From: a virus
Strand: one strand, 5' to 3'
Virus record (IMG/VR): IMGVR_UViG_3300043429_000467
Length of the DNA stretch: 64,000 nt
The position numbers and the translations under genes are program-made. Positions 49,313-62,970 of the stretch are shown piece after piece. Under the pieces are notes generated by a model. That model did no database searches, had not been told where the DNA came from, and was given only the letters and a program-made list of their open reading frames with translations. Position 1 is the stretch's first letter. Each line of letters opens with the position of its first letter.

Positions 49313-50091
49313 TGATTCGTTTATTGATACTAATATTCGTTTTGTCAGGATGTGCTAACGTTCATATGAATGCGGCAAAAGAAGAACCTGTCAAGATAGA
49401 AGCTAGAAAAAAGATTGTTGATGCTTTACCTGAATTGGATGGACCACCGATTCCTATCGCAGTGTATTCGTTCGCAGATAAGACAGGTCAAAAGAAGTCA
49501 TCAGATAATCTGGCATTGTTTAGTACCGCAGTAACGCAAGGTGCAGAAGTGTTTCTAATCAAAGCGTTACAAGATAGTAAGAATTGGTTTAAAGTAGTAG
49601 AAAGGGTGGGACTTGATAATCTTATTAAAGAAAGACAGTTGATAAGAAATCAAAGAGAAGTATATGAAGGTAAAGAAGCAAAGCCATTAAAACCAATGAT
49701 GGTTGCTGGTGTAATGATAGAAGGAGGTATCATTGGATATGATACTAACATCAGGTCAGGTGGTAATGGTGCTAGATTATTAGGTATTGGTGTTTCACAG
49801 CAATATAGAGTAGATGAAATTGTAATCTCTATTAGATTGGTGAATGTCAATTCGGGTGAAGTAATGTTAACTAACGCAGTATCCAAAACGATTTACAGTA
49901 CTCAACATAACTTAGGTATCATGAAGTTTGTTGATTCAGGTACTAAGTCGATTGAGTTTGAAAATGGAGTTGCACTTAATGAACCTACTACATTCGCAGT
50001 AAGAGTTGCGATTGAACAAGCGGTTTATGAATTGATAATAGATGGAGAAAAGAAAGGTTATTGGAAATTTAAAAAGGAAAAACAGCAATGA
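49312..50091 (+). CDS. csgG: CsgG curli secretion channel lipoprotein
   Basis: Lipobox LSGC. IPIAVYSFADKTGQ...FSTAVTQGAEVFLIKALQDS...ERVGLDNLIKERQLIR...MIEGGIIGYDTNIRSGGNGARLLGIGVSQQYRVDEIVISIRLVNVNSGEV aligns along its length with E. coli CsgG (FVSVYNIQDETGQ...FSTAVPQSATAMLVTALKDS...ERQGLQNLLNERKIIR...MVEGSIIGYESNVKSGGVGARYFGIGADTQYQLDQIAVNLRVVNVSTGEI). Confidence 0.85.
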   Translation: MIRLLILIFVLSGCANVHMNAAKEEPVKIEARKKIVDALPELDGPPIPIAVYSFADKTGQKKSSDNLALFSTAVTQGAEVFLIKALQDSKNWFKVVERVGLDNLIKERQLIRNQREVYEGKEAKPLKPMMVAGVMIEGGIIGYDTNIRSGGNGARLLGIGVSQQYRVDEIVISIRLVNVNSGEVMLTNAVSKTIYSTQHNLGIMKFVDSGTKSIEFENGVALNEPTTFAVRVAIEQAVYELIIDGEKKGYWKFKKEKQQ

Positions 50092-50675
50092 AAAAAATAG
50101 CATTAATCTTTATGATGATAATGCTTAGTAATGTATATGCCGCAGAAATTTATATTGAACAGTCAGGAAGTAGTTCTACTGTCAATATAAATCAAGAAGG
50201 TATAGGTAATATTGTAGGTGATTCACTGAATCCGCTTTATATTGGCGGTGGTTCGAATAACGTTGATATCGACCAAATCGGTGATAATAACAACCTTCAA
50301 GGTGTTGTAAATGGTGCAGGAACAGCAACCACAGTAACAACTAATGGTTCAGGTAATATTCAAATTATTAATTGTGGTACAACAACATCAGCAGGATGTT
50401 CATCATCAGTAATCAAACAAGTAGTTACTGGAAGTGATAACACTATAACTCAAGATTTAGGTACTGGTGCTAATCATAACAGTGAGATTACGATTACTGG
50501 AAGTGATAACGCAGTGACTCATACTAGCACAAATGCTGGTGCAAGTACTGTAGATATTTCAGTGAGTGGTAATCAAAATACTGTGGGAGTAACACAAAGT
50601 GGACTTACAGCGAAAACTGTATCAGTTAGTTCTACTGGTAATAGCAATAATATTACTATCAACCAGTCAGAATAG
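50088..50675 (+). CDS. Curlin-repeat (CsgA/CsgB-like) secreted amyloid subunit
   Basis: Signal peptide plus at least six imperfect repeats of the S-x5-Q-x-G-x-x-N type (TVNINQEGIGN, NVDIDQIGDNN, NTITQDLGTGAN, NTVGVTQSG, NNITINQS). Start overlaps the csgG stop. Confidence 0.65.
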   Translation: MKKIALIFMMIMLSNVYAAEIYIEQSGSSSTVNINQEGIGNIVGDSLNPLYIGGGSNNVDIDQIGDNNNLQGVVNGAGTATTVTTNGSGNIQIINCGTTTSAGCSSSVIKQVVTGSDNTITQDLGTGANHNSEITITGSDNAVTHTSTNAGASTVDISVSGNQNTVGVTQSGLTAKTVSVSSTGNSNNITINQSE

Positions 50676-51696
50676 TTATTCAGCAATCGGTAAAGTTTCA
50701 GAACAAACAGGTCCTACCGAGATTGTCCGACAAAGCAAATCAATAGAGAGTAAATTAAACTCTTCTATTGAGATGCTTGACACTGTGGTAACCGCAAAGT
50801 CTAAAGTGTTACTAACGTTCGAAGATGATACAACAGTTAAGATTACTGAACAATCTAAATTAATTATCGATGATTTTGTTTATGATAATAAAAAAGGTGC
50901 TGGTAAATTAGCATTAAAAGTTGCTTTGGGTACGGCAAGATATGCTTCAGGACAGATAGCTAAGAGTAACCCACAATCAGTTAACATACAGACACCAACA
51001 GCAACAATTGCAGTTCGTGGTACTGATTTTAGTATGACTGTAGATGAATTAGGTAGAAGTTTGGTGATGCTTTTACCTTCTTGTGATAAGAAAGCGTGTG
51101 TAACAGGTGCTATTGAAGTGAGTACCGATGCAGGTTCTGTTTTTATGAATCAAGCATATCAAACAACTGTAGTTGCTACACGAGACCAAGCACCAACTAA
51201 GCCTGTGATTGTTAATATAGACCAGGCAAATATTAATAACTTGTTGATTGTTGCACCTCCAAAACAAGTAGAAGAACAAAAGATACAGCAAGATAATAAA
51301 ACTGTATTAGATTATAACTTTTTAGATAGAGATTTATTAGAGTATAACAAACTAGATGAAGATGAATTAAAAAGGTTTAGTTTACTTGATATGAATTTTT
51401 TATCTTTTGATTTGTTACCAAATATTTTGGATGAATCGAATAGGTCATTAGCGGCAAGTCAAGAAGCAATGCTAGAAGAAAAAACTTTGCTTCCTGGATA
51501 TAATGAAGCATCAGGATTGAAATATGGTATAGATGAAAATGGTAAGTTGATTTTAACAAAGATTGCTAATCATACTGCACAAGTGACAGTTGATAAAGAG
51601 CATGATGTGATTGTTAGTATTACGCAGGATAGTTCACCACTGATACAAAAAGTGAATGGTGGTGGAACAACAACAATTAACATTAATCAGAAATAG
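50599..51696 (+). CDS. Secreted FecR-domain-like protein (365 aa)
   Basis: Signal peptide MDLQRKLYQLVLLVIAIILLSTSQNSYSA. Central TPTATIAVRGTDFSMTVDE resembles FecR/DUF4974-type beta-sandwich domains. 5' end overlaps the curlin gene by 77 nt in another frame. Confidence 0.4.
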   Translation: MDLQRKLYQLVLLVIAIILLSTSQNSYSAIGKVSEQTGPTEIVRQSKSIESKLNSSIEMLDTVVTAKSKVLLTFEDDTTVKITEQSKLIIDDFVYDNKKGAGKLALKVALGTARYASGQIAKSNPQSVNIQTPTATIAVRGTDFSMTVDELGRSLVMLLPSCDKKACVTGAIEVSTDAGSVFMNQAYQTTVVATRDQAPTKPVIVNIDQANINNLLIVAPPKQVEEQKIQQDNKTVLDYNFLDRDLLEYNKLDEDELKRFSLLDMNFLSFDLLPNILDESNRSLAASQEAMLEEKTLLPGYNEASGLKYGIDENGKLILTKIANHTAQVTVDKEHDVIVSITQDSSPLIQKVNGGGTTTININQK

Positions 51697-51704
51697 GAGT
51701 AAAA

Positions 51705-53699
51705 ATGCTAAAGCAATCTTTATTAACAGTGGCATTAATCGGTGTGTTTGGTACAGTTCAATCAGCACCTTTAGTATTAGAAGGCGATTACATCAAAATT
51801 GGTGTAAACGAAGTAGGTACATTAGGTTCTAATGGTAATACATCACCTGGTGTTCTATATGATAACACCGGCACAGGAACATTCAACACAGCATATGACT
51901 ACTTAACTCCTGGTTCACCATTCGAAGGATGGACTGTTCAATATAATGGAACAGAATCAGTGATGAATAACAATGCTCAATGGTCATCACCACAAATGAC
52001 AGGTACACTAACAAGTTACAATGGTGTTGCTTACAATGGTACAACATTCGACAATCGAGCAGTTTGGGAAGGTACTTCAGTAAACTTTGATTTGTTACAT
52101 GATGTTCGCTTCAATGATAATCAAAAGTTTGTGGATATTACATCAATATTGACAGCTAAAGTTGCAATGACTGATTTATACTTCGCAAGATATACAGACC
52201 CTGACGCACGTGCGGCCGCTGGTGACAGTTCTGCTACAACAAACACATTAGGATTCTCACCTATTCCAGTAACTCAAGTTGTATTTTCTGAAGCTTTAGT
52301 ATCTAGATATGCACTTGGTTTATACTCAGCGGCACCTAACGTAGGCGCAGGTGTTAGTTCAGGTTGGTCAACAGACGCAACAACATATTACACCGGTGCA
52401 AATGATGGTAATGGTGACTATACGATAGGTTTAGGCTTCCACGTACCAACAGTAGCAATTGGTGACATCGTTACCTTTAATTATGCATACATCTTTGGAC
52501 CTAGCACATTATCTGCTGGTTCTACTGCTGTTACTTCAGGTGCTGGTGGTGGCGTTCCTGGTGAAGTTCCTGGTTGTGTGTCTGATTGTACATTACCACC
52601 TGACCCTAGTTCAACTCCTACATTAGTATCAACAGACGTTGAGTTATCTAGTGTATCTGTAGTTCATAGAGGTGATACTGATACTGCAATCGAATACGAC
52701 TATGCAACATCAAAAGGTTCTAAAGTATTAGCTGTAAATCAAACTACAACTACAACTTTAACAACTCCAGTAACAACTACAGTAGCTTCTACTTCAACTA
52801 CAGTTGAAACATATAGTGATTCATCAGTAGTTCGTACAGTTGGTGCAACTACAACGACATCAAGTACAGTTAATGACGTAACAGAATCAGAATATGATAC
52901 TGCATTCTCAACAAGAATTGACCAATTTGATAGATTGTCAGCATCAAATGAAATGTACAATAGACAGTTAAATAGTAATATCATGGATAGATTTGTAGCA
53001 GGTCAAACTGGTGCTTATTTAAACATCGATAGTCAAACTAGCAATACACAAGATACCTATAAACAAAAAGCAAATCGTTTTGGTGTTGGAGTAGACAAGT
53101 CTATTACTGATAATTTGAATGTAGGTTTTCAATACAATAACATTTCATCAAGATTATCTGGAACTAATGCAGGTGGACGTTTAGATAAAAATCATGTTGG
53201 TGCATATGCTGTATACACTAAAAACAATTGGGTGTTTGTAAACGATATTGGTTTCTCATATAACGATTACAAAACAAATCACAGTTTACCTGAATTGAAT
53301 GCAACAAATAGTTCAAGTGCTAATGGATATGACTTATGGGTTAGCGGTAGAGCATATACTCCATCACTAAAAGGATTCAGACCATATGCTGGTATTAGAA
53401 TTGAAAACAACAACTTAGATTCAGCTAAAGATAAAGGTACTGAATTGACTGCTGTTAGTTATAGTAAAATTAATTCAACAAATACAACAGGTGAATATGG
53501 TATCAGATACGATTATCAATACAAAAAAGTTAACTTGTTAGCTGAAGTTGGTTCTAATTCTGATAATATCAAACTATACAAAGCAGGTATTAACTTTATT
53601 CCAAATGAAAAAGTTATTGGTGGTGTATCATTTACGCAACAAGAATATGATAATATCAAGAATGATGTGATTTCAGCTAATATAAAAGTTAATTTCTAA
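51705..53699 (+). CDS. Autotransporter-like outer-membrane protein (passenger, Thr-rich linker, C-terminal beta-barrel)
   Basis: Signal peptide; Thr-rich linker TTTTLTTPVTTTVASTSTT; C-terminal alternating-hydrophobic strands ending ...ISANIKVNF (aromatic terminal residue typical of OMP barrels). Confidence 0.5.
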   Translation: MLKQSLLTVALIGVFGTVQSAPLVLEGDYIKIGVNEVGTLGSNGNTSPGVLYDNTGTGTFNTAYDYLTPGSPFEGWTVQYNGTESVMNNNAQWSSPQMTGTLTSYNGVAYNGTTFDNRAVWEGTSVNFDLLHDVRFNDNQKFVDITSILTAKVAMTDLYFARYTDPDARAAAGDSSATTNTLGFSPIPVTQVVFSEALVSRYALGLYSAAPNVGAGVSSGWSTDATTYYTGANDGNGDYTIGLGFHVPTVAIGDIVTFNYAYIFGPSTLSAGSTAVTSGAGGGVPGEVPGCVSDCTLPPDPSSTPTLVSTDVELSSVSVVHRGDTDTAIEYDYATSKGSKVLAVNQTTTTTLTTPVTTTVASTSTTVETYSDSSVVRTVGATTTTSSTVNDVTESEYDTAFSTRIDQFDRLSASNEMYNRQLNSNIMDRFVAGQTGAYLNIDSQTSNTQDTYKQKANRFGVGVDKSITDNLNVGFQYNNISSRLSGTNAGGRLDKNHVGAYAVYTKNNWVFVNDIGFSYNDYKTNHSLPELNATNSSSANGYDLWVSGRAYTPSLKGFRPYAGIRIENNNLDSAKDKGTELTAVSYSKINSTNTTGEYGIRYDYQYKKVNLLAEVGSNSDNIKLYKAGINFIPNEKVIGGVSFTQQEYDNIKNDVISANIKVNF

Positions 53700-53723
53700 T
53701 TTTTAACGACTAAATAAGTAATC

Positions 53724-55742
53724 ATGAAAAAATTACTTAATCCATGGTTAGCGTTAATAACGTTAACTTTATTAGTAGTAATCAGATTGGCAGACTTCAG
53801 TTTTATCGAGTCTGTCAGATTGCGATATTTTGACACATTAATTACAAGTGAATCTGTAAAGGTTTCTGAACAAATTCACGTTGTAAATATAGATGATAAG
53901 TCCATAGAAAAGTATGGACAATTTCCGTTTCCTAGAGGTGATTATGCGAGCATTATTGATTCTTTGTATGACCGTGGCGCTGGGCTGGTTGTTTTTAACT
54001 TGTTTCTACCTGATAGTGATAGGTTTGGACAAGATGGTAGACTTACTTCTACCCTTAACAAACACCCTGTAGTATTCCCACAAGCTGGTTCTACTGATAA
54101 ACAAAAAGCTATACCATTTAGACCTGGTGTTTCTGAGATTGGAACACCAGCTTCTAATTTTGCAGTATCTTATCCAAGTATTTTAACTAACATAAAACAA
54201 ATTAATGAAAATGCCGCTGGCATTGGAGTAGTGAATGTATTACCTGAAATTGATGGTGTTGTCCGTCGTGTACCTATGGTCGTCTCAAGCAATGGCGTAT
54301 TGTTTCCCTCAATCACACTTGAAACTTTGCGAGTTGCTTCCGGAGACCCAAGTTTCCAAGTCAAGTCAACAGATTACGGTATCGAGGCCGTCAGAATACC
54401 TAGCTTCAGAAAAGTTGAAACTGACTCTTTCGGACGAGTTTGGATTGACTGGTCCACTAAGCCTACCGAACACAGTCTTGTTGATTTACCCAAGTCCTTT
54501 GATGGGACAATCGTCATTGTTGGACTCAGTGCTAAAGGACTCAACAATCCTGTCGCAACAGCAAGAGGAGAGGTCTATCCGCATTATTTACAGGCAAGCG
54601 TTCTAGATACACTTGTATCAGGTAAAAATATTAGTAGACCTGACTGGTCAAATGGTGTAGAATTATTATTGACAGTTATTCTGTCTGTGATATCTATATT
54701 ATTAACTAGGTGGAAATATGGCTTTATTGCTTTTCTTGCTATCATTGCTGGTGTTGTGGGTGCTTCTAAAGGTGCTTTTGTTTACTATTCGTATCTTCTT
54801 GATTGTATTTTTCCTGTGTTTTGCTTGGGTATTGTTTATTTACATGTGTATACAGTTAAGTTCGTAAGCGAATTAAATCAAAAACTTCAAATCAAAAAAC
54901 AATTTGGCACATATCTGTCGCCAGCACTTGTTGAAAAACTTCAAAAGAATCCTGAATTATTAAGACTTGGTGGTGAGTCTCGTGAACTATCTATTATGTT
55001 CACCGATGTTAGAGGCTTCACTACAATCTCAGAACACTATGGTAAAGATGTTCAAGGATTAACTCAAATTATGAATCGCTACATGACAGCGATGACCGCA
55101 AAGATTATTGAGAACAACGGAACACTGGATAAATACATTGGTGATGCTCAGATGGCTTTCTGGAATGCACCACTTGATGAGCCTAACCACGCTAAATTGG
55201 CATTGAAAACGGCTCTAGAAATGATGGAGAGTTTAGATGCGTTTAATAAAGAGATTCAAAAAGAGGGTATTCCGGCGTTTGGTATGGGACTCGGGATTAA
55301 TACTGGCACTGTTGTCGTTGGTAATATGGGTTCTAGCCAACGCTTTGATTACACCTGCTTAGGTGATGCTGTTAACTTAGCGTCACGTTTAGAAGGACAA
55401 TCGAAACCTTATGGTGTTAAAATCATATTAGGTTCGTTAACTGCTGAACAAGTTAAAGATGAATATCCAGTTGTTGAGTTAGATTGTATTGCTGTTAAAG
55501 GTAAAACAGAAGGTGTTAAGATTTATACTCCTTGTGTTTATCAAGAAGAGCATTATAAGTTACACAAAAAATATCTAAAATCATACTATGATGGTATTTG
55601 GGATTCAGCAATTTTCTTTGCTAAAGATTTAGAGATTAATGGTCCTACAGAATTACGTCAATATTATCATAACATGATAGAGAGAATGCTTGAAGGTAAA
55701 CCTGAAGATTGGGATGGTACGTATAGAGCAACTAGCAAGTAA
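53724..55742 (+). CDS. CHASE2 sensor-domain class III adenylate/guanylate cyclase (membrane-bound)
   Basis: N-terminal TM, periplasmic CHASE2-like region, 3-4 TM helices, then a cyclase homology domain (FTDVRGFTTISE...KYIGDAQMAFWNAP...GINTGTVVVGNMGS...YTCLGDAVNLASRLE) with both metal-binding Asp residues. Confidence 0.8.
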   Translation: MKKLLNPWLALITLTLLVVIRLADFSFIESVRLRYFDTLITSESVKVSEQIHVVNIDDKSIEKYGQFPFPRGDYASIIDSLYDRGAGLVVFNLFLPDSDRFGQDGRLTSTLNKHPVVFPQAGSTDKQKAIPFRPGVSEIGTPASNFAVSYPSILTNIKQINENAAGIGVVNVLPEIDGVVRRVPMVVSSNGVLFPSITLETLRVASGDPSFQVKSTDYGIEAVRIPSFRKVETDSFGRVWIDWSTKPTEHSLVDLPKSFDGTIVIVGLSAKGLNNPVATARGEVYPHYLQASVLDTLVSGKNISRPDWSNGVELLLTVILSVISILLTRWKYGFIAFLAIIAGVVGASKGAFVYYSYLLDCIFPVFCLGIVYLHVYTVKFVSELNQKLQIKKQFGTYLSPALVEKLQKNPELLRLGGESRELSIMFTDVRGFTTISEHYGKDVQGLTQIMNRYMTAMTAKIIENNGTLDKYIGDAQMAFWNAPLDEPNHAKLALKTALEMMESLDAFNKEIQKEGIPAFGMGLGINTGTVVVGNMGSSQRFDYTCLGDAVNLASRLEGQSKPYGVKIILGSLTAEQVKDEYPVVELDCIAVKGKTEGVKIYTPCVYQEEHYKLHKKYLKSYYDGIWDSAIFFAKDLEINGPTELRQYYHNMIERMLEGKPEDWDGTYRATSK

Positions 55743-56251: not shown

Positions 56252-56274
56252 ATTAATCTTTCAATTGGTGGGCC

Positions 56275-56352
56275 CCGTGGGATTCGAACCCACTGTCTAT
56301 CGGTTATGAGCCGATTGCTTATACCAGATTTAAGCTTGAGGCCCGAATATGG
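56275..56352 (-). tRNA. tRNA-Met or Ile2 (anticodon CAU)
   Basis: Hand-folded cloverleaf: CCA encoded; T-arm GTGGG/attcgaa/CCCAC on the plus strand; anticodon loop ctCATaa. Confidence 0.6.
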
Positions 56353-56358
56353 AGCGTC

Positions 56359-56433
56359 CTGCGGGAATCGAACCCGCCTCTTCAGCTTGGAAGGCTGTAA
56401 TAATACCACTATACCAAGAACGCATAACGGATG
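56359..56433 (-). tRNA. tRNA-Gly (UCC)
   Basis: Cloverleaf with T-arm GCGGG/aatcgaa/CCCGC; anticodon loop ctTCCaa. Confidence 0.6.
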
Positions 56434-56700
56434 AAAAAGCAAGTAAAAGACGGGACAATGTACATTAGAAGGGCTATGCCACTAAACTCTAAGACAATCA
56501 ACAAACCACAATAATCAAAACCTGCATATTAGTTAGAAACAAAACACAAAGTCGTCGTTTATAATACTAACACACGCAGAACGATTTCAGGTCGTTTTGG
56601 ATTTGGCGTCCATACTGGAGAGAAATTAATCTCATCTTAGTCAATTCTCATCTCTTTTTCATGCCGAGTAGATTTTTTGAAGAAAACCTACCAGAAAAAC

Positions 56701-57267
56701 TTAAAGAATACCTGCTTTAGTTAGTGTTTCCACTACGTTATCAGGTAACTCAATCTCAGTCTTAATATTCAATTCAAGAATCTTATCTTGAATTTTTTGC
56801 TTCTCTTTTTTGAATGTAGAAACATTCTTTTTAGCAATAGAAATATTACCTTCAGTACATACGGTAGTAGTTACTTCATCGGCTCTACCATATACACTTC
56901 TAGTAGTATCTGTATTGTTTTTAATCTTATCAAGCTTACCTTCGACAATATTAATAGCTGTCGCTGGTGCTGAAGTTGCTATGTTTTGATGTAGATGAAT
57001 AGTCTTTTCAATCAATGCAACATCACTTAACAAATCATTAATTTGATTTGCGTTTGCTTTACCAACTAGTTTTCTAATCGTATACAAACTAACATACAAA
57101 TCATTATTTACCTCAAAAGCTGTTAAATAATCTTTGTTTGCTTTATCAAACTTTTCAGATACATTTTCAAACTCATTGAATGTAACCATATTGTTTAGCT
57201 GATTATTCTTAATAGTATCAAGAATAGTTTGTTGTAATGCATTTGCTTTTCTAAGCGTAATTTTCAT
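56701..57267 (-). CDS. Hypothetical protein (188 aa) inside the tRNA region
   Basis: Intact ORF; predicted helical/coiled. Confidence 0.3.
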   Translation of the reverse strand: MKITLRKANALQQTILDTIKNNQLNNMVTFNEFENVSEKFDKANKDYLTAFEVNNDLYVSLYTIRKLVGKANANQINDLLSDVALIEKTIHLHQNIATSAPATAINIVEGKLDKIKNNTDTTRSVYGRADEVTTTVCTEGNISIAKKNVSTFKKEKQKIQDKILELNIKTEIELPDNVVETLTKAGIL

Positions 57268-57275
57268 AATAACTC

Positions 57276-57461
57276 CTAATGTGCTAAAATCTTAAAGCAC
57301 TTAAATTTAATAACTTTTGTTGTACCTGAAGCCATCTTCTTAGCTTCTTCACCTGCGGCAACACATTCTTGTTGTGAAAAGAAACCTGGTACATTAGTTA
57401 ATGCCATCGAATCAGTATCACTCATCATACCTGCATGTGCAAACAATAATAAAACCCACAT
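57276..57461 (-). CDS. Small secreted hypothetical protein (61 aa)
   Basis: Signal-peptide-like N-terminus. Confidence 0.25.
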   Translation of the reverse strand: MWVLLLFAHAGMMSDTDSMALTNVPGFFSQQECVAAGEEAKKMASGTTKVIKFKCFKILAH

Positions 57462-57483
57462 AATAAATCTCCAATAATAAGAA

Positions 57484-57559
57484 TGGTGTCCCCGGAGAGA
57501 ATCGAACTCCCGTATAATGCTTTAGAAGAGCACTGCGTCATCCACTACGCTACGAGGAC
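57484..57559 (-). tRNA. tRNA-Arg (UCU)
   Basis: Cloverleaf folded by hand; anticodon loop ctTCTaa. Confidence 0.55.
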
Positions 57560-57594
57560 ATTTGAAAGCATATTACTATACTTTACTTTAAATG

Positions 57595-58155
57595 TCAAAT
57601 ATATCTACTATGTTTAGGTAGTTTAGACTTTAAGTATTCCATTTGGTCAGCAACTACGTTTCTATTCTGTAGAATAAAGTGTTCCCATCTACAAGGTCTG
57701 TAAGGTAAAAACAACAATAACATATTAGCTTCTTCAGGTGTTCTATCTGCTTTCTTAGAGTTACAGTGCTTACATGAAGACACTGAGTTTTCCCAAGCAT
57801 TAGAACCACCACGACTTCTTGGATGTACGTGGTCTCTAGTCAAATCTTTTGATTCAAAGAATAGTCCACAGTAAGCACATAAGTTATGGTCTCGTCTGAA
57901 TAACAAAAAGTTACCGTGAGCATTCACAGTTTCTTTAGTATGCAATCTTCGAGTTTCACCTCTTACTGAGATGATAGACTTGATACTGATTTGAGATTGT
58001 AAACCATTCTTTTGATAGCCGCCATGAAACACTTGAAACTCAGTACCTAAGTCCCAAACAACTTTATCTGAGGCGTAGTAATGCACCGCTTCTTCGGGCA
58101 TCAGCCACTTGAAGGGATTACCTGCAATATCTAGTCCTAGTATACGTGCTTCCAT
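57595..58155 (-). CDS. HNH homing-type endonuclease
   Basis: CAYCGLFF...DHVHPRSRGGSNAWENSVSSCKHCNSKK (HNH motif with flanking Cys pairs). Inserted between tRNA genes. Confidence 0.75.
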   Translation of the reverse strand: MEARILGLDIAGNPFKWLMPEEAVHYYASDKVVWDLGTEFQVFHGGYQKNGLQSQISIKSIISVRGETRRLHTKETVNAHGNFLLFRRDHNLCAYCGLFFESKDLTRDHVHPRSRGGSNAWENSVSSCKHCNSKKADRTPEEANMLLLFLPYRPCRWEHFILQNRNVVADQMEYLKSKLPKHSRYI

Positions 58156-58204
58156 GATAGTCTCAAAAAAATAATTTAGATGTTATATGTATATATCTTT
58201 AAAA

Positions 58205-58281
58205 TTGGTGCGGAAGGAGGGAGTCGAACCCTCAAAACTCGGATTTTAAGTCCGATACGTATGCCAATTCCGTCACATCCG
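58205..58281 (-). tRNA. tRNA with anticodon UAA (Leu-type anticodon) but short 5-nt variable region
   Basis: Clean T-arm GAGGG/agtcgaa/CCCTC, 5-bp anticodon stem TCGGA/TCCGA, loop ctTAAaa. Total 77 nt, class I architecture. Confidence 0.5.
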
Positions 58282-58361
58282 CTTATTAAATTTAGAACGT
58301 TGCTGTTTCTGAACCCTAGTAGTAACAATAAAGTTAAAAAATTACAGCAACGCTCTAAAAC

Positions 58362-58438
58362 TGGTAGAAGTAGTGAGATTCGAACTCACGATAGGTTGCG
58401 TATGAAGCAACTGCATTAAGCCACTATGCTACACTTCT
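58362..58438 (-). tRNA. tRNA-Met or Ile2 (CAU), second copy
   Basis: T-arm GTGAG/attcgaa/CTCAC; anticodon stem GTTGC/GCAAC; loop ttCATac. Confidence 0.6.
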
Positions 58439-58650
58439 GTTAAAACTTTTTGCTTCATAAATTGGCAGTATGCTTTATAATCTTCATGCATTGCCTTTTG
58501 TATTAACTCATCAGTGCTTTTATAAAAAATATGTCCAACTAGTTTTAATCTAATAGACTCATATAAACAGTCCATCTTCAATTCTTCAGATGGAGGATAT
58601 TCTTTATAAAACTCTTCATAAGTTAACATAATAATCCTTTGGGGTGTCAT
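58429..58650 (-). CDS. Small hypothetical protein (73 aa)
   Basis: Intact ORF between tRNAs. Confidence 0.25.
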   Translation of the reverse strand: MTPQRIIMLTYEEFYKEYPPSEELKMDCLYESIRLKLVGHIFYKSTDELIQKAMHEDYKAYCQFMKQKVLTEV

Positions 58651-58718
58651 ACGAGATTTGAACTCGTGCTATAACATTCACAGTGTTAGGTGCTAACCAC
58701 TACACTAATGACACCATT
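58640..58718 (-). tRNA. tRNA-His (GUG)
   Basis: Anticodon loop ctGTGaa; discriminator C and extra 5' G(-1), consistent with His identity. Confidence 0.65.
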
Positions 58719-58721
58719 AAA

Positions 58722-58795
58722 TGGCTCCGGTGGAGGGAGTCGAACCCCCGCCAAGAGGTTTGGAGTCTCTTGTGCTACCGTAACACTTCACCGGA
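58722..58795 (-). tRNA. tRNA-Trp (CCA)
   Basis: Anticodon loop ctCCAaa; acceptor stem perfectly complementary. Confidence 0.55.
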
Positions 58796-58802
58796 ATAAA
58801 AC

Positions 58803-58879
58803 TGGAGGATAGAGTGAGATTCGAACTCACGAACCACTGCTTTGCAGGCAGGTACCTTAGACCACTCGGTCATCTATCC
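58803..58879 (-). tRNA. tRNA-Cys (GCA)
   Basis: T-arm GTGAG/attcgaa/CTCAC; anticodon loop ctGCAaa. Confidence 0.55.
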
Positions 58880-59101
58880 TTAACAACAACCTGCATCTGG
58901 AAAAATAAATACTTTTTCTTCAGCAGAATCATCAGTATTATATTCAATAAATGTGTTAATTTCTTCTTGTGCAAATGTAACACCTTCATTCTCTGCTAAA
59001 AACGTAGCATCAGCTAGATTATCAGCAACTACAACTAACCCGCCATCTGAATGGTAATTGTCAGTTAGATTAGCAATCCTTGTCCAAATAAAAACTTTCA
59101 T
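58880..59101 (-). CDS. Small hypothetical protein (73 aa)
   Basis: Intact ORF. Confidence 0.25.
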   Translation of the reverse strand: MKVFIWTRIANLTDNYHSDGGLVVVADNLADATFLAENEGVTFAQEEINTFIEYNTDDSAEEKVFIFPDAGCC

Positions 59102-59104
59102 AAT

Positions 59105-59521
59105 CTACTCCAATGGAAATAATTCTTTAAATTTTGCAGTCATTACATCAATTAAAACTGGATGACGATAATCGTAGTCATCTTCAATTTCTAAATTAAT
59201 TACTTGTTTAAAATCAAAATCAAATGTCCAATTATCCATATCATTAAACATTTTGTTTTGCATTGTATTGATATGTAATTGTTGAATACTATCCATCACT
59301 AGAATAACATCAGCCCAAATAATCAAAGCTTCAGTCACAGGAATAATCGCATATTCTGCACTAGTTCCTGCACATCTAGTATTGAAGTTCCATGGTTCTG
59401 AACTAAGAATATGTGCCGCTGTAGGACTTCTTAGACATCCTGCTGAACATACAGTCAATACTTTCTTATGCTTTCCTTGATAAGCATTGAATATCACCCC
59501 AAGTTGGTTTCTTTTTAGCAT
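59105..59521 (-). CDS. Low-molecular-weight phosphotyrosine phosphatase / ArsC-family fold protein (tentative)
   Basis: VLTVCSAGCLRSPTAAHIL resembles the P-loop CX5R(S/T) signature of the LMW-PTP family. Confidence 0.4.
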   Translation of the reverse strand: MLKRNQLGVIFNAYQGKHKKVLTVCSAGCLRSPTAAHILSSEPWNFNTRCAGTSAEYAIIPVTEALIIWADVILVMDSIQQLHINTMQNKMFNDMDNWTFDFDFKQVINLEIEDDYDYRHPVLIDVMTAKFKELFPLE

Positions 59522-59690
59522 TCTTACTTTCCTTAATAAAAATCTTTAGTGTTCTACCTTCATCTTGAAGACTAAACTCTAATGATTCTACATTCCAATT
59601 AGTATAACTACGACCTTTACCATCAATCACTTCAACTCTAGTGACATCATAATAAGGCTCTTCAAATCTATTAATATGCGGATTGGTCAT
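59466..59690 (-). CDS. Small hypothetical protein (74 aa; 5' end overlaps neighbour)
   Basis: ORF overlapping the phosphatase-like gene by 56 nt; true start uncertain. Confidence 0.2.
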   Translation of the reverse strand: MTNPHINRFEEPYYDVTRVEVIDGKGRSYTNWNVESLEFSLQDEGRTLKIFIKESKNAKKKPTWGDIQCLSRKA

Positions 59691-60243
59691 GGAATGTAAA
59701 TCCTTTATTCTTAAATTTTTGTAATCGCCACTCTTTAATAAATTTGATATCAGTATTATAGATTAGCTTCTTATTCATACATGCGTCATACTGTTCTCGT
59801 GAGATAAACAACTTATCTTGCATCAACAAATAGTAAGGTTTGCAATGAACAAAGTCAAAATGATTTCGAACATCATTAGGATGTCCTGCAAACGTGAAGA
59901 TGAATGAGTCATCAGTCTTCATGGTAATCGCATTAGCGGTAATCATTTTACCATTATTATCTGCGTGTTCCATGTAATTGATATTGACTTCTTTAATCTC
60001 ATCATCATAATTCTTTTCTATGTGTTCTTTAAATGTTACGGCAGAATCTTGGTCATAGAAATAAAAGTCCCAATCTTTAGGTATTTCGCCCCTTAATAGA
60101 GAACCGATTGCACCACCTGAAAGATACACGGCATCATTTTCATACAGCATTTTCCACCAATCAAAATTCTTCAATGCTTCCATATGGAATTTAATGGTGT
60201 CTTTTACATCTTTAATTTTATTCTTTTCGTTTTCAGTAAACAT
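59671..60243 (-). CDS. Polymerase-beta-type nucleotidyltransferase-fold protein (tentative)
   Basis: LSGGAIGSLLRGEIPKDWDFYFYD fits a G[SG]-x8-DxD NTase signature. Confidence 0.35.
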   Translation of the reverse strand: MFTENEKNKIKDVKDTIKFHMEALKNFDWWKMLYENDAVYLSGGAIGSLLRGEIPKDWDFYFYDQDSAVTFKEHIEKNYDDEIKEVNINYMEHADNNGKMITANAITMKTDDSFIFTFAGHPNDVRNHFDFVHCKPYYLLMQDKLFISREQYDACMNKKLIYNTDIKFIKEWRLQKFKNKGFTFHDQSAY

Positions 60244-60307
60244 ACAATCACCTAATCATAATATAAAATAATCATACATCAAAATTAATTTAATGTAAAG
60301 CATTATT

Positions 60308-60383
60308 TGGTAGGACCCCTCGGAATCGAACCGAGTCCTCAGCGTCTTCAGCGCCACGTACTGACCACATATACGTGAGTCCT
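60308..60383 (-). tRNA. tRNA-Phe (GAA)
   Basis: T-arm CTCGG/aatcgaa/CCGAG; anticodon loop ctGAAga; stem has two G-U pairs. Confidence 0.55.
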
Positions 60384-60385
60384 AT

Positions 60386-60461
60386 TGGTACTCGAAGAGA
60401 GAATCGAACTCTCATTTGACGATTATCGGTCGTCTGTTCTAAACCGTTGAACTATTCGAGC
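60386..60461 (-). tRNA. tRNA-Ile (GAU)
   Basis: T-arm GAGAG/aatcgaa/CTCTC; anticodon stem GACGA/TCGTC; loop ccGATaa. Confidence 0.6.
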
Positions 60462-60462
60462 A

Positions 60463-60963
60463 TTAATAAACAACATTATAGCAACAATTAAGTACTACTC
60501 TCTCAATATTGCTATTCTTAACTTGTTCTACTTTATGATAATACCAAGGCATCATATTAACAAAAATACATGTTCCATATTTTGGATATACTGTGAACAC
60601 TTCTTCTTGAGCATTCTTGAAACTGATAGAACCACCAGTTTCTTCGTTCATATCATTAAAGTATACTAAAGCAAACAGATTCCAACCTTCTCTTAAATCG
60701 TTGTGCCAATCACAACTAGTTGGTTCTGTACCTTTCCATAATTCTGTTTTTCCAACATCTACAGATTGAAACGACTTGTTTAATATTGTAACAAGCTTTT
60801 CATTAATAGATTTTATAGCGTTATCTAAATTGTCATCATCTTTAGGTTCATATACATTGTTTAAATGTTCGTCTTTCCATATGATTAATTTTAAATCAAC
60901 ATCCGATAACAACTCAGAAATGTCGATTTGATGATAACCTTTTTCTATTAAATCATTTATCAT
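60463..60963 (-). CDS. 2OG-Fe(II) oxygenase-like protein (tentative)
   Basis: WHNDLREG (HxD) and downstream YYHKVE...ERVV, with spacing compatible with a prolyl-hydroxylase-type facial triad. Confidence 0.35.
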   Translation of the reverse strand: MINDLIEKGYHQIDISELLSDVDLKLIIWKDEHLNNVYEPKDDDNLDNAIKSINEKLVTILNKSFQSVDVGKTELWKGTEPTSCDWHNDLREGWNLFALVYFNDMNEETGGSISFKNAQEEVFTVYPKYGTCIFVNMMPWYYHKVEQVKNSNIERVVLNCCYNVVY

Positions 60964-60975
60964 AATCTTCCTTTA

Positions 60976-61051
60976 TTGGACCCCTCTGCAAGAATCGAAC
61001 TTGCATCATAACGTTCGTAGCGTTGTATTCTAATCCATTGAACTAAAAGGG
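60976..61051 (-). tRNA. tRNA-Arg (ACG)
   Basis: T-arm GCAAG/aatcgaa/CTTGC; anticodon loop ctACGaa. Confidence 0.5.
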
Positions 61052-61057
61052 GTAAAA

Positions 61058-61132
61058 CTGGCGACTCGTGGGGGAATCGAACCCCCGTATCCTACTAGAC
61101 AGGCAGGCATAATAACCATTATATCAACGAGT
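61058..61132 (-). tRNA. tRNA-Asp (GUC)
   Basis: T-arm GGGGG/aatcgaa/CCCCC; anticodon loop ctGTCta. Confidence 0.6.
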
Positions 61133-61183
61133 CAAAAAACTTTCAAGCAATTGTTTTCAGCAATCGATGAAAGCCGTGTTACA

Positions 61184-61258
61184 TGGTGCCCCGTGACGGA
61201 TTCGAACCGCCATAACCTGATTACAAAACAGGCATAATAGCCTTTATATGAACAGGGC
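61184..61258 (-). tRNA. tRNA-Thr (UGU)
   Basis: Anticodon loop ttTGTaa; acceptor with one G-U. Confidence 0.55.
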
Positions 61259-61263
61259 AAAAC

Positions 61264-61340
61264 TGGTACTCAGTGAAGGAATCGAACCTTCCTAAGCTAT
61301 CTTGTAAGGATAGTCTCTAGCCAATCGAGTCAACTGAGTA
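61264..61340 (-). tRNA. tRNA-Val (UAC)
   Basis: T-arm GAAGG/aatcgaa/CCTTC; anticodon stem CTATC/GATAG; loop ctTACaa. Confidence 0.55.
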
Positions 61341-61344
61341 TAAT

Positions 61345-61419
61345 TGGTGGAATAGGCGAGACTCGAACTCGCAACAGTCTGCTTGCAAAGCAGGTGAACT
61401 CCCATTGTTCTACTACCCC
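61345..61419 (-). tRNA. tRNA-Ala (UGC)
   Basis: Anticodon loop ttTGCaa; acceptor stem carries a G3-U70 pair, the Ala identity element. Confidence 0.6.
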
Positions 61420-61425
61420 AAAACT

Positions 61426-61500
61426 TGGTCTCTCAGGTAGGACTCGAACCTACATCGTCTACGCCCCAAACGTAGTGACCAACCTCTGGCCCACTGAGAG
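61426..61500 (-). tRNA. tRNA-Pro (UGG)
   Basis: Anticodon stem CTACG/CGTAG; loop ttTGGgg. Confidence 0.6.
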
Positions 61501-61507
61501 TTAAAAC

Positions 61508-61584
61508 TGGCTGTGTACCTAGGATTCGAACCTAGCGCATCTTGATTAACAGTCAAGCCTTCTCACCTAGAGAAGTCGTACACA
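61508..61584 (-). tRNA. tRNA-Asn (GUU)
   Basis: T-arm CTAGG/attcgaa/CCTAG; anticodon stem CTTGA/TCAAG; loop ctGTTaa; perfect acceptor. Confidence 0.65.
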
Positions 61585-61592
61585 ATAAAACT

Positions 61593-61669
61593 TGGTACCC
61601 TTAGAAGGATTCGAACCTTCAAATTTCTGTTTCTAAGACAGACTCCTTTACCAATTTGGACATAAGGGC
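61593..61669 (-). tRNA. tRNA with anticodon UAG (Leu-type anticodon) but short variable region
   Basis: T-arm GAAGG/attcgaa/CCTTC; anticodon stem TCTGT/ACAGA; loop ctTAGaa; 77 nt, class I architecture. Confidence 0.5.
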
Positions 61670-61677
61670 ATTAAACT

Positions 61678-61767
61678 TGGCGGAAGTTTAGGGAATCGAA
61701 CCCTCGACGATTACTCGTTCCTACTGTTTAGCAAACAGTGCTAGTTTCCCTGACTAGATAAACTTCC
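61678..61767 (-). tRNA. tRNA-Ser (GCU), class II with long variable arm
   Basis: 90 nt; anticodon stem ACTGT/ACAGT; loop ttGCTaa; ~17-nt variable arm. Confidence 0.6.
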
Positions 61768-61837
61768 ATATTGAGCGGTTTGCCGTACTCTCCTAACCTC
61801 GAATACATTATGTTACGGCTTTCTCTCAAACTAAAAC

Positions 61838-61928
61838 TGGCGGAGGGATGGCGGAATCGAACCCCTGGCAATCTCTTGCTCGCTCTGCTTTCAAAACAGA
61901 CGCACTATCCCCGAGTGCATAACCCTCC
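61838..61928 (-). tRNA. tRNA-Ser (UGA), class II
   Basis: ~90 nt; anticodon loop ttTGAaa; variable-arm hairpin GCAA/tctc/TTGC. Confidence 0.5.
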
Positions 61929-61935
61929 ATTACTG

Positions 61936-62013
61936 ATTTGTAGTCTAGGGAATCGAACCCTAATAAAATCTAGAATACGGTGTCAATCGACACTTATTAG
62001 TCCAACCCTACAA
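61936..62013 (-). tRNA. tRNA-like element, possibly degenerate (anticodon not resolved)
   Basis: Good T-arm TAGGG/aatcgaa/CCCTA and partial acceptor complementarity (tttgtag / ctacaaa), but no encoded CCA and no canonical anticodon arm; an internal hairpin GTGTC/aatc/GACAC is present. Confidence 0.3.
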
Positions 62014-62016
62014 AAC

Positions 62017-62093
62017 TGGCAGCCGTGGTGAGATTCGAACTCACTATGTACTAGCTTCAAAGACTAGTGCACTTCCTGTCGTGCGTCACGGCA
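62017..62093 (-). tRNA. tRNA-Gln (UUG)
   Basis: T-arm GTGAG/attcgaa/CTCAC; anticodon arm ACTAG(T)/ctTTGaa/(G)CTAGT with a 6th U-G pair closing a 7-nt loop (or a 9-nt loop alternative). Confidence 0.45.
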
Positions 62094-62101
62094 ATAAATC
62101 T

Positions 62102-62176
62102 TGGTGGGAGCACAGGGACTCGAACCCTGAATGATTGATTAAAAGTCAACTGTGATAACCATTTCACCATACTCCC
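62102..62176 (-). tRNA. tRNA-Lys (UUU)
   Basis: T-arm CAGGG/actcgaa/CCCTG; anticodon loop ctTTTaa. Confidence 0.6.
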
Positions 62177-62218
62177 AAAACTTGGCTCGTTTTTATAGAG
62201 GTGAACACTCCTCATGTT

Positions 62219-62304
62219 TGGTGAGTGTTGTAGGATTCGAACCTACTAAGCACGAGGCAACTGGGTTACAGCCAGCCGAGACACTCCAACGTCCCCGAAC
62301 ACTC
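62219..62304 (-). tRNA. tRNA-Tyr (GUA), class II
   Basis: 86 nt; T-arm GTAGG/attcgaa/CCTAC; anticodon loop ctGTAac; 13-nt variable arm; perfect 7-bp acceptor (gagtgtt / aacactc). Confidence 0.6.
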
Positions 62305-62376
62305 ATTAAACCATACAGAAGCATACTGAACGACCCCAGCAACTACGTTGAAGGCGCCGAACAATACGCTTTTGTA

Positions 62377-62452
62377 TGGTACACGGTACGGGAATCGAAC
62401 CCGTCCTACTGACGTGAAAGGCCAGTGTTCTAAACCGATAAACTAACCGTGT
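62377..62452 (-). tRNA. tRNA-Glu (UUC)
   Basis: T-arm ACGGG/aatcgaa/CCCGT; anticodon loop ctTTCac; perfect acceptor. Confidence 0.6.
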
Positions 62453-62501
62453 ATATAACATCTAAATTGTTAATGAACGATAAAACTAAACTACTAAAAA
62501 C

Positions 62502-62530
62502 AAAAAACCCGACTTTTTTAGGGTCGGGTT
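62502..62530 (-). terminator. Hairpin terminator / processing structure upstream of the tRNA array
   Basis: aaaaa-ACCCGAC-tttttta-GGGTCGGGTT; a second perfect complement AACCCGACCC at 62563-62572 allows an alternative long-range pairing. Confidence 0.5.
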
Positions 62531-62970
62531 CTATAAATTTATTATGATACTCTAAACTTACAAACCCGACCCTCGTTTCTCAATCGCATAATCCCATGAG
62601 CGTGAGCCAGCATTCATCGGCTGTGCATTAAACACTGCTAATAAATTGCTCGTACTGAGATGTAAGTTTGTTTTGTTCATACGTTTATTTATACAACTTT
62701 TTTCTAAAAAATTAAAAAATTTAAAAAATACTTTTAAAATGTGTCATCCAGAAGTTTAGCATAATATGAATACAAGTAATCATTTCTACTATTCTCATGA
62801 ACCACCATATTCTATCTCGTTCAGGATGTTTCATAATTGGTTGCGGTCGAACGAATTGCACGTTGTCTCTAGCTTATGAGGCTAGCGAGTTTCTGTTACT
62901 CTACCACCGCAATATTCTTAATCAATCTTATTTATAAAAAATTATATTCTATTTATAACAGTTTGTCAAC

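Follow-up and report, generated by a model that had tools for sequence, protein, structure and literature searches.

A tRNA gene island covering all 20 amino acids, and a 25th tRNA of unusual geometry, in a T4-like phage related to the pelagimyophages

Arrays of transfer RNA (tRNA) genes with embedded endonucleases are a textbook feature of phage genomes, and large phages commonly have more than 20 tRNAs; T4 carries 8 tRNAs, as compared with the full 20-amino-acid set described here. The tRNA numbers published for the closest relatives of the present phage are low, i.e. 0-3 in the pelagimyophage genomes (PMC7029224, Table 1) and four in phage Melnitz (PMC9004378). Here we describe a tRNA gene island in a 64,000-nucleotide (nt) stretch of viral DNA (IMG/VR record IMGVR_UViG_3300043429_000467), the whole of which is called the window below. 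At the protein level the window belongs to a T4-like myophage, with genes for baseplate wedge, tail tube cap, gp32, gp59, RNase H and PhoH, and its closest cultured relatives are the Methylophilales (OM43) phage Melnitz and the Pelagibacter phages Mosig and HTVC008M, at 38-44% protein identity. With Melnitz and the pelagimyophages (HTVC008M, Mosig and the PMP-MAVGs) it shares the T4-like structural genes as well as a curli-type cassette (CsgF/CsgG/curlin-like, 48872-55742, plus strand), which ends with a 672-amino-acid adenylate/guanylate-cyclase-like protein. In Melnitz and HTVC008M, however, the tail/baseplate module follows directly after the cyclase gene and there is no tRNA array, unlike in the window.

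The original prediction, made from the sequence alone, had proposed about 24 tRNAs on the minus strand between 56275 and 62452. When ARAGORN was run over the whole window, both for finding the genes and for drawing their cloverleaves, it called exactly 24 tRNAs. All of them lie on the minus strand, from 56266 to 62452, with none elsewhere in the window, and the list of anticodons is identical to the predicted one. The predicted end of the array thus stands while its start falls 9 nt inside the last tRNA, and a 25th tRNA, which we call X25, had been overlooked. The tRNA genes are, in their 5' to 3' order:

62838-62911, minus strand: X25, anticodon CAU; 49.7 bits against Rfam model RF00005, homologs and covariation
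62377-62452, minus strand: tRNA-Glu (UUC); ARAGORN, Rfam, cloverleaf drawing
62219-62304, minus strand: tRNA-Tyr (GUA) with a long variable arm; ARAGORN, sub-threshold match to the Sec model
62102-62176, minus strand: tRNA-Lys (UUU); ARAGORN, Rfam
62017-62093, minus strand: tRNA-Gln (UUG) with a U1xU72 mismatch and G73; ARAGORN, Rfam
61838-61928, minus strand: tRNA-Ser (UGA) with a long variable arm and G73; ARAGORN, sub-threshold match to the Sec model
61678-61767, minus strand: tRNA-Ser (GCU) with a long variable arm and G73; ARAGORN, sub-threshold match to the Sec model
61593-61669, minus strand: tRNA-Leu (UAG) without a long variable arm; ARAGORN, Rfam 68 bits
61508-61584, minus strand: tRNA-Asn (GUU); ARAGORN, Rfam
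61426-61500, minus strand: tRNA-Pro (UGG); ARAGORN, Rfam
61345-61419, minus strand: tRNA-Ala (UGC) with G3.U70; ARAGORN, Rfam
61264-61339, minus strand: tRNA-Val (UAC); ARAGORN, Rfam 43.9 bits on a short stretch
61184-61258, minus strand: tRNA-Thr (UGU), about 93% identity with tRNA-Thr of Otagovirus and Ounavirinae; ARAGORN, Rfam
61059-61133, minus strand: tRNA-Asp (GUC); ARAGORN, Rfam
60977-61052, minus strand: tRNA-Arg (ACG); ARAGORN, Rfam
60386-60461, minus strand: tRNA-Ile (GAU); ARAGORN, Rfam
60308-60383, minus strand: tRNA-Phe (GAA); ARAGORN, Rfam
58803-58879, minus strand: tRNA-Cys (GCA) with U73; ARAGORN, Rfam
58722-58795, minus strand: tRNA-Trp (CCA); ARAGORN, Rfam
58640-58715, minus strand: tRNA-His (GUG) with C73 and a templated G-1 at 58715; ARAGORN, Rfam
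58362-58438, minus strand: a CAU tRNA, Met2, with anticodon loop UUCAUAC; ARAGORN, Rfam
58206-58282, minus strand: tRNA-Leu (UAA) without a long variable arm; ARAGORN, Rfam
57484-57559, minus strand: tRNA-Arg (UCU); ARAGORN, Rfam
56350-56423, minus strand: tRNA-Gly (UCC) with U73; ARAGORN, Rfam
56266-56344, minus strand: a CAU tRNA, Met1, with G1-C72, C4-G69, C5-G68 and an 11-nt D loop; ARAGORN, Rfam

The automated finders do not reject the candidates: besides the 24 ARAGORN calls, 21 of the 24 lie at or above the gathering score of RF00005 (29 bits), with scores of 42.7-68 bits, 20 of them in the whole-region run and tRNA-Val in a separate one. The absence of tRNA-Val from two whole-region Rfam runs was a filter artefact. 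The other three, Ser(UGA), Ser(GCU) and Tyr, appear in Rfam as sub-threshold tRNA-Sec matches, and RF00005 fails to match them because of their long variable arms. All 24 array tRNAs are drawn as regular cloverleaves with a 7-nt anticodon loop, a discriminator base and a genome-encoded CCA, and identity features are in place, namely G3.U70 in tRNA-Ala (as had been predicted), G-1:C73 in tRNA-His and U1xU72 with G73 in tRNA-Gln. The discriminator bases of most array tRNAs agree with the bacterial identity rules. Single-sequence minimum free energy (MFE) folding of the individual tRNAs was, as could be anticipated, uninformative. A density of 24 tRNAs per 6.2 kb far exceeds chance, and the array fits the phage tRNA gene cluster type known from T4 and T5 in being on one strand, closely spaced and flanked by T4-like genes.

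The anticodon set was originally described as near-complete; its coverage is indeed broad, and the wording was an understatement, as all 20 amino acids are covered. The elongator anticodons contain no duplicates, i.e. there is one decoder per codon box, and the pattern is a sparing one, with G34 for NNY codons and U34 for NNR codons and for every four-codon box except Arg CGN, which has A34. Codon usage was taken from 90 phage open reading frames (ORFs; 17,612 codons). With conservative wobble rules 45 of the 61 codons can be read, which corresponds to 78% of codon usage, while four-way wobble by U34 in the family boxes makes 59 of the 61 readable and leaves only ATA and CGG. The former occurs 239 times and its reading requires that one of the CAU tRNAs be a lysidine-modified tRNA-Ile2; the latter accounts for 5 of the 17,612 codons. 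The island is a minimal complete kit rather than a few chosen decoders.

The original prediction had suggested two functions for the array, an answer to a strong codon-usage mismatch with the host and a defence against tRNA-targeting systems. The composition of the set bears on the first of these, codon compensation, the explanation in which each phage tRNA would top up a specific shortage in the host for codons that the host decodes poorly. Third codon positions are strongly AT-biased (GC content at third positions, GC3, is 0.225), and the U34 tRNAs and the AGA- and UUA-type decoders match the most used phage codons in the two-codon boxes, both of which speak for compensation. However, the set is complete and non-redundant, and includes Trp, Met and every two-codon box regardless of usage; a complete set, as opposed to a subset for particular codons, argues against selective compensation. 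Moreover, the hosts of the cultured relatives are streamlined bacteria with AT-rich genomes, and the GC content of the window (34% overall, 32-39% along its length) is within that range, so that a strong codon mismatch is not expected. We consider compensation an unlikely main function, even though it may contribute.

The relatives of the window show how such a set is kept and lost. When the array was compared with 50,697 phage records by megablast, no related genome came up, only tRNA-Thr-sized matches (about 91-94% identity with the tRNA-Thr genes of Otagovirus and Ounavirinae phages). The window's cyclase protein, on the other hand, identified 80 related IMG/VR loci with 60-77% identity, referred to below by L numbers where they have to be told apart. 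According to ARAGORN these loci carry 0-27 tRNAs beside the cassette, at least one in 46 of the 80 and at least 18 in 12 of the 80; where a large array is uninterrupted, it covers 19-20 amino acids, and the island occurs on either side of the curli/cyclase cassette. Much of the gene order of the window is common to L070 and L003 (cyclase identity 61% and 77%, respectively), whose orthologous tRNAs still fold at mean identities to the window of 79% and 73%. Given 0-4 tRNAs in the published relatives and 0-27 within the clade, the island is accessory, a module that members of this clade have gained and lost. Conservation and turnover are observed, as are the genes, their folds and the completeness of the set. 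Relatives with few tRNAs tend to retain Arg(UCU), Thr(UGU), Gly(UCC), Asn and Tyr, a pattern that is often interpreted as codon compensation.

Two further observations concern the arrays of relatives. In L057 (1080-1156, plus strand) there is a tRNA with anticodon UUA that would read the UAA stop codon and is a candidate ochre suppressor. A 92-nt "tRNA-Ile(UAU)", its anticodon at position 31, was called by ARAGORN in L054 (20755-20846), L059 (10742-10833), L064 (15661-15752) and L096 (8562-8653); this is probably a tRNA with a long arm, or another non-canonical one, that was parsed wrongly.

The turnover could also mean that the island is largely selfish, kept and spread by linked homing endonucleases and by recombination during co-infection, with little benefit to the phage. 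As had been predicted, the array is interrupted by an endonuclease gene:

57595-58155, minus strand: ORF of 186 amino acids, HNH endonuclease; Pfam HNH_5 3.2e-15 and HNH 6.2e-14, phrog_16726 3e-26

The domain assignment, which comes from profile matches, is solid. Among the 80 related loci a homolog is found only in L070 (77% amino acid identity), where it is likewise located beside tRNA-Arg(UCU); a sporadic gene in the same position is as expected of a mobile endonuclease. This sporadic occurrence, the range from 0 to 27 tRNAs beside the same cassette and the decayed tRNA relics within the spacers all agree with a selfish element, and there is a precedent in T4, where SegB drives preferential inheritance of the tRNA region (PMC2330249). 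Nevertheless we regard this explanation as very improbable: all 24 genes have an intact cloverleaf, identity elements and CCA, there are compensatory changes among orthologs (a partial sign of purifying selection on the stems), and a complete, duplicate-free set is not one that drift could maintain.

The explanation we favour, and hold to be probable with moderate confidence, is that the complete, CCA-ready decoder kit makes phage translation generally independent of the host. What we infer about the expression, processing, charging and selective benefit of the island is as follows. The head-to-tail genes on one strand, each with its own CCA, would form a polycistronic island from which host RNase P and 3' trimming enzymes would release mature tRNAs. 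As every array tRNA encodes its CCA, maturation is possible without CCA addition. Host aminoacyl-tRNA synthetases would then charge the released tRNAs, and phage translation would become far less dependent on the host's tRNA pool and its condition; this pool might be ill-matched to an AT-rich genome (GC3 0.23), depleted during infection or hit by tRNA-cleaving defences. Phage tRNAs have been reported to sustain translation and to provide escape or rescue from tRNA nucleases (PMC10264068, PMC13096335). The HNH gene would be a mobile passenger in this scheme, possibly aiding the spread or retention of the island.

A number of points weigh against host-independence. Firstly, some relatives thrive with zero tRNAs, and the island is therefore not essential for the clade. 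Secondly, the phage uses GGU, GUU, GCU and ACU very often, and these codons are decoded solely via wobble; moreover, four-codon reading by U34 tRNAs depends on modifications that cannot be predicted. Thirdly, neither a promoter scan nor reading of the sequence found a convincing promoter directly 5' of tRNA-Glu, the first gene of the main array, and a terminator-like hairpin lies just ahead of it:

62496-62530, minus strand: intrinsic-terminator-like hairpin AACCCGAC / GUCGGGUU followed by a U run; read from the sequence

This hairpin, which escaped the automated scan owing to its 9-nt loop, separates tRNA-Glu from the upstream unit of X25. The latter has a promoter-like sequence of its own, whose function would be that of a sigma-70 promoter:

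62941-62969, minus strand: perfect sigma-70 consensus TTGACA-17-TATAAT upstream of X25; 12 of 12 matches

Two TATAAATA motifs resembling T4 late promoters (62950-62957 and 62929-62936) overlap or adjoin this consensus. With 11 copies in the window vs 10.3 expected, the motif shows no enrichment, hence a late-promoter reading of the two copies is weak.

On the minus strand the island thus begins with the promoter, X25, two very small ORFs and the hairpin, which are followed by a run of 14 tRNAs in 1.5 kb (Glu, Tyr, Lys, Gln, Ser, Ser, Leu, Asn, Pro, Ala, Val, Thr, Asp and Arg(ACG)). Then come an ORF similar to 2OG-Fe(II) oxygenases, Ile and Phe, four ORFs, Cys, Trp and His, and, after a short gap, Met2, Leu(UAA), the HNH gene, Arg(UCU) and two ORFs. 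The last genes, Gly and Met1, are convergent with the end of the cyclase gene. Many adjacent tRNAs are only 2-8 nt apart, with U-rich spacers such as GUUUUAU, and a few spacers are longer and contain recognizable structures:

62305-62376, minus strand: Glu-Tyr spacer, extended hairpin; MFE -30.3 kcal/mol, z -6.75, 0 of 200 shuffles
58283-58361, minus strand: Met2-Leu spacer, long hairpin; MFE -26.9 kcal/mol, z -6.34, 0 of 200 shuffles
61929-62016, minus strand: Gln-Ser(UGA) spacer, decayed tRNA relic; T arm UAGGG-UUCGAUU-CCCUA, acceptor-like UUUGUAG/CUACAAA
61134-61183, minus strand: Thr-Asp spacer, attenuator- or terminator-like hairpin followed by UUUUUU; z -2.0

Small stable RNAs are known from the T4 tRNA cluster, and the first two hairpins, as judged from their predicted folding energies, could be small stable RNAs or processing sites. 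The relic in the Gln-Ser spacer has an intact T arm; it lacks the anticodon arm and CCA, is not stably folded (z -1.2) and has no Rfam match. That the tRNA-sized spacers might be further overlooked tRNAs was discarded, as Rfam gives none at E<=1, and homologs of these spacers, the stable hairpins included, were not found in the related loci.

The two Leu tRNAs deviate from the textbook rule that tRNA-Leu has a long variable arm. Both are 77 nt long and have a variable loop of 5 nt, i.e. they lack the long arm (>10 nt) of class II tRNAs, yet they keep a Leu-like D arm (3-base-pair stem, (G/A)AAUUGG loop; UG-ACG-GAAUUGGCAUA-CGU in tRNA-Leu(UAA)), A73 and U48. A distant blastn search with tRNA-Leu(UAG) gave no matches. 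E. coli leucyl-tRNA synthetase (LeuRS) needs A73, A15-U48, G18G19 and A20a, and does not need the long arm (PMC9976931). The elements listed there (A73, A15-U48, the placement of G18G19, the 3-base-pair D stem) are present in the Leu tRNAs of the window, and with these elements kept and the arm dispensable it is plausible that LeuRS would charge them. Short Leu tRNAs (76-78 nt) make up 16 of the 31 found in the relatives. In addition, all annotated Leu tRNAs are short (77-78 nt, A73) in two phages of other lineages, Erwinia phage phiEa21-4 (Ounavirinae) and Pseudomonas phage PE09 (Otagovirus), whose Ser and Tyr tRNAs keep their long arms:

6589-6665, 6834-6911 and 7372-7448 of phiEa21-4 (L084): short Leu tRNAs
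5904-5980 and 8600-8676 of PE09 (L085): short Leu tRNAs

These have a class-I-like D arm, as opposed to the tRNA-Leu-like 3-base-pair D stem of the window. Their existence rules out that arm-less Leu tRNAs are a specialty of the clade; rather, they are a widespread and apparently uncommented trait of phage arrays. At one and the same array position the Leu tRNA is 85 nt long in L040 and 77 nt in L043.

The most unusual member of the island is X25. ARAGORN does not call it in the window, and tRNAs of its family escape ARAGORN in nearly all cases. Its acceptor end has U1-A72, G2-C71, C3-G70 and A73-CCA (3' end ...CGCA-ACCA), the anticodon loop is CUCAUAA, the T loop is UGCAAUU, the D loop has no GG and the variable loop is 4 nt long. 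The acceptor stem has 8 pairs and the T stem has 4, an 8/4 geometry as opposed to the canonical 7/5. Homologs were found in several loci:

1848-1921 of L003 and 6838-6913 of L087: X25 homologs
L088-L096: further X25 homologs

Between X25 and its L003 homolog, each of the four stems shows compensatory double changes. A family of seven distinct members emerged from pattern scans of IMG/VR, and in its alignment 89.7% of the cells are paired under the 8/4 fold vs about 40% when the partners are slid; 14 of the 21 pairs vary on both sides, and none of 500 shuffles matches the observed values. Nucleotide 8 pairs with 65 in all six derived members (G-C in five, A-U in one) while 49-65 pairs in none of the six; the canonical relatives of X25 show the reverse, i.e. 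49-65 and not 8-65. For L090, a reading as an 8/4 tRNA with a one-nucleotide linker was abandoned, as comparison with L016 favours 7/5. An ORF of about 37-46 amino acids (62721-62834, minus strand) begins immediately after X25; it has counterparts with 65% identity in L030 (9225-9362) and L027 (6885-7022), and in L030 it follows or overlaps tRNA-Gly(UCC) instead.

The question arises whether X25 is an initiator tRNA. Bacterial initiator tRNAs have three consecutive G-C pairs at the base of the anticodon stem. These are absent from X25, the stem of which (CUAGC/GCUAG) has A29-U41, G30-C40 and C31-G39. The determinants of methionyl-tRNA formyltransferase are A73, G2-C71, C3-G70, G4-C69, an unpaired 1-72 and R11:Y24 (PMC9976931). 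In the X25 family G2-C71, C3-G70 and A73 are invariant, G4-C69 is found in 5 of the 7 members and 1-72 is mismatched in 5 of the 7; the member in the window has R11:Y24 as A11-U24, and its 1-72 is the weak pair U1-A72, a position that is mismatched in 14 canonical initiator-type homologs of the relatives. X25 resembles tRNA-fMet in its CUCAUAA loop and in G2-C71, C3-G70, A73 and R11:Y24, and differs from it in the U1-A72 pair, the anticodon stem, the missing D-loop GG, the UGCAAUU T loop and the 8/4 geometry. The paired U1-A72 and the absent G-C pairs, as read from the gene, weigh against an initiator role for X25 itself. On the other hand, the covariance model of the X25 family scores the canonical 7/5 CAU tRNA of many relatives well above ordinary tRNAs, and an initiator-type acceptor end is found in 16 of the 47 CAU tRNAs of the relatives, in 16 of 35 CAU-bearing loci. 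The best reading of X25 is that it descends from an initiator-type tRNA of phages and has been remodelled.

The same 8/4 geometry is known from the tRNAs described by Mukai et al. (2016), i.e. allo-tRNA, 8/4 tRNA-Ser and tRNA-His, which have a 12-pair acceptor branch and occur in phage clusters (PMC5389517). Those cases are Ser, His, Cys or Sec-like, with no initiator or Met tRNA mentioned (PMC5389517), whereas X25 has a CAU anticodon and an initiator-type acceptor end. The long variable arm and serine identity of allo-tRNA are also missing from X25, given its 4-nt variable loop.

Reshaped tRNAs raise the possibility that the island is a dedicated counter-defence, supplying nuclease-resistant stand-ins for host tRNAs cut by anticodon or variable-loop nucleases of the PrrC, VapC, PARIS, retron or Septu type. 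The ORFs inside the array are relevant here; several of them look like enzymes, in agreement with the original prediction (2OG-Fe(II) oxygenase-like, Gad2-domain and CX5R phosphatase-like):

60463-60963, minus strand: ORF of 166 amino acids, 2OG-Fe(II) oxygenase-like; PF13640 at 29.3 bits vs a cut-off of 27, a weak match in the precomputed annotation
59671-60243, minus strand: ORF of 190 amino acids with PF26128 (Gad2 domain), nucleotidyltransferase-like; precomputed Pfam match, phrog_4400, weak nucleotidyltransferase PHROG match
59466-59690, minus strand: ORF of 74 amino acids, function unknown; phrog_10600
59105-59521, minus strand: ORF of 138 amino acids, Cys-phosphatase-like with a C25-X5-R31-S motif; motif and homologs
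58880-59101, minus strand: ORF of 73 amino acids without detectable similarity; ORF list, profile and precomputed searches
57276-57461, minus strand: ORF of 61 amino acids, function unknown; phrog_20786
56701-57267, minus strand: ORF of 188 amino acids, function unknown; weak phrog_25230 match

For the unannotated ORFs of the array, searches of NCBIfam, Pfam at relaxed thresholds and PDB sequences yielded nothing usable. The phosphatase-like ORF is very highly conserved; its homologs number over 300, with identities of 72-85%, many of them named "predicted protein tyrosine phosphatase" by JGI, and it stays beside tRNA-Cys in three arrays (the window, L070 and L003). PF26128, carried by the 190-amino-acid ORF and all its 28 homologs (182-235 amino acids; precomputed hits), is named for Gad2 (Gabija anti-defence 2), a predicted nucleotidyltransferase of 400 amino acids that inhibits Gabija (bioRxiv 10.1101/2023.05.01.538930). 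The ORF shares the domain but has half the length of Gad2, and we therefore call it a Gad2-domain protein only; its match to a PolyA_pol head domain (13 bits) is below any threshold and was not used.

Further genes of potential relevance are located elsewhere in the window. At 28969-30794 (minus strand) an RNA ligase (PF09414 and a PHA02142 OB domain) directly adjoins a calcineurin-like metallophosphoesterase, a candidate pair for RNA end-healing and sealing, i.e. tRNA repair. An Rv2179c-like 3'-5' exoribonuclease is found at 31319-31894. An ORF similar to Acb3, a CBASS inhibitor family (26733-27449, minus strand, 7.9e-26), and an S-adenosylmethionine (SAM)-lyase-like ORF (21920-22447, minus strand), the latter below threshold with 27.6 bits vs a cut-off of 28, are candidates for additional counter-defence genes.

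These genes (the Gad2-domain ORF within the island; the ligase-phosphoesterase pair, the Acb3-like and the SAM-lyase-like ORFs outside it) are circumstantial support for counter-defence, a plausible function, and there is a published precedent for phage tRNAs acting against tRNA nucleases (PMC10264068, PMC13096335). Also, the Leu tRNAs lack the arm while the variable loop of the class II tRNA-Tyr is a known nuclease target, and the initiator-like X25 is remodelled while initiator tRNA is a known target of VapC. However, no resistance-conferring changes were identified in the phage tRNAs, host tRNAs being absent from the comparison; the known nucleases each cut few tRNAs, so that a 20-amino-acid set exceeds the need; the Tyr and Ser tRNAs retain their long arms; and the Gad2-domain protein is half as long as the Gad2 that was tested. 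As the main purpose of the island, counter-defence seems quite unlikely to us. The same counter-defence and RNA-repair-like genes can be counted, again circumstantially, for host-independence. The four explanations (host-independence, codon compensation, counter-defence and selfish spread) overlap, and each of them is argued from sequence data.

A more speculative idea connects the reshaped tRNAs with the complete set. The X25 family might be a phage-specific initiator lineage that was remodelled from 7/5 to 8/4, lost the G18G19/T-loop signature and is driven by its own consensus promoter; together with the arm-less Leu tRNAs and the full elongator set it might constitute a structurally "private" kit that is served by host synthetases and formyltransferase and evades shape-reading host nucleases. 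The shapes in question would be the anticodon stem-loop of initiator tRNAs and the variable arm of class II tRNAs. We mention this idea as a tentative one and consider it doubtful.

As to the other CAU tRNAs, Met1 has C4-G69 and C5-G68, which are TilS determinants in E. coli tRNA-Ile2, and is thus a candidate lysidine-bearing tRNA-Ile2 that would read AUA. Met2 is probably the elongator tRNA-Met.

The tRNA-His of the array provides a clue to the host. In the SAR11 group, 7 of 8 genomes, including HTCC1062, use a tRNA-His with A73 and without G-1, and their histidyl-tRNA synthetase (HisRS) has co-diverged (PMC3937112). In contrast, tRNA-His of the window has C73 and a templated G-1, and a typical SAR11 host is therefore unlikely. 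The distinct His tRNAs of the relatives have C73 in all cases and G-1 in 7 of 10; those of L003, L035, L039, L049, L054, L064 and L073 are, like that of the window, of the type with C73 and a templated G-1, which argues against typical SAR11 hosts for the clade as well. A host with a canonical HisRS would fit better, the OM43-like Methylophilaceae being one example, which agrees with Melnitz as the closest isolate. The argument bears on the metagenomic host assignment of phages described as pelagimyophage-like.

The array as such changes no picture; it extends large arrays to the abundant aquatic pelagimyophage/Melnitz-like group, with 0-4 published tRNAs. Within one clade the island ranges from none to a complete set, a natural series in which the reasons for phages to keep tRNAs can be tested. 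A specialist may be surprised by two things, the initiator-like 8/4 tRNA and the general pattern of arm-less Leu tRNAs. They are unproven leads, firstly on the tolerance of bacterial translation enzymes for reshaped tRNAs, and secondly on whether phages remodel tRNAs to evade tRNA-targeting defences.

Finally, the island can be compared to the well-described tRNA clusters of other phages. The clusters of T4/T6 and T5 have, like the window, tRNAs on the same strand, small ORFs, a free-standing endonuclease of the homing type and structured non-tRNA spacers. In the T-even phages, SegB promotes the inheritance of the tRNA region as well as its amplification (PMC2330249, PMC13096335). The endonucleases are of different types, since SegB of the T4 cluster is a GIY-YIG enzyme and that of the window an HNH enzyme; there is no DNA similarity between the T4/T5 clusters and the window, and it is in the window that all CCA ends are encoded. 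The Ounavirinae phage phiEa21-4 and the Otagovirus phage PE09 differ from the window in lineage, host and gene order, but resemble it in carrying a large set, about 20-27 tRNAs, on one strand.

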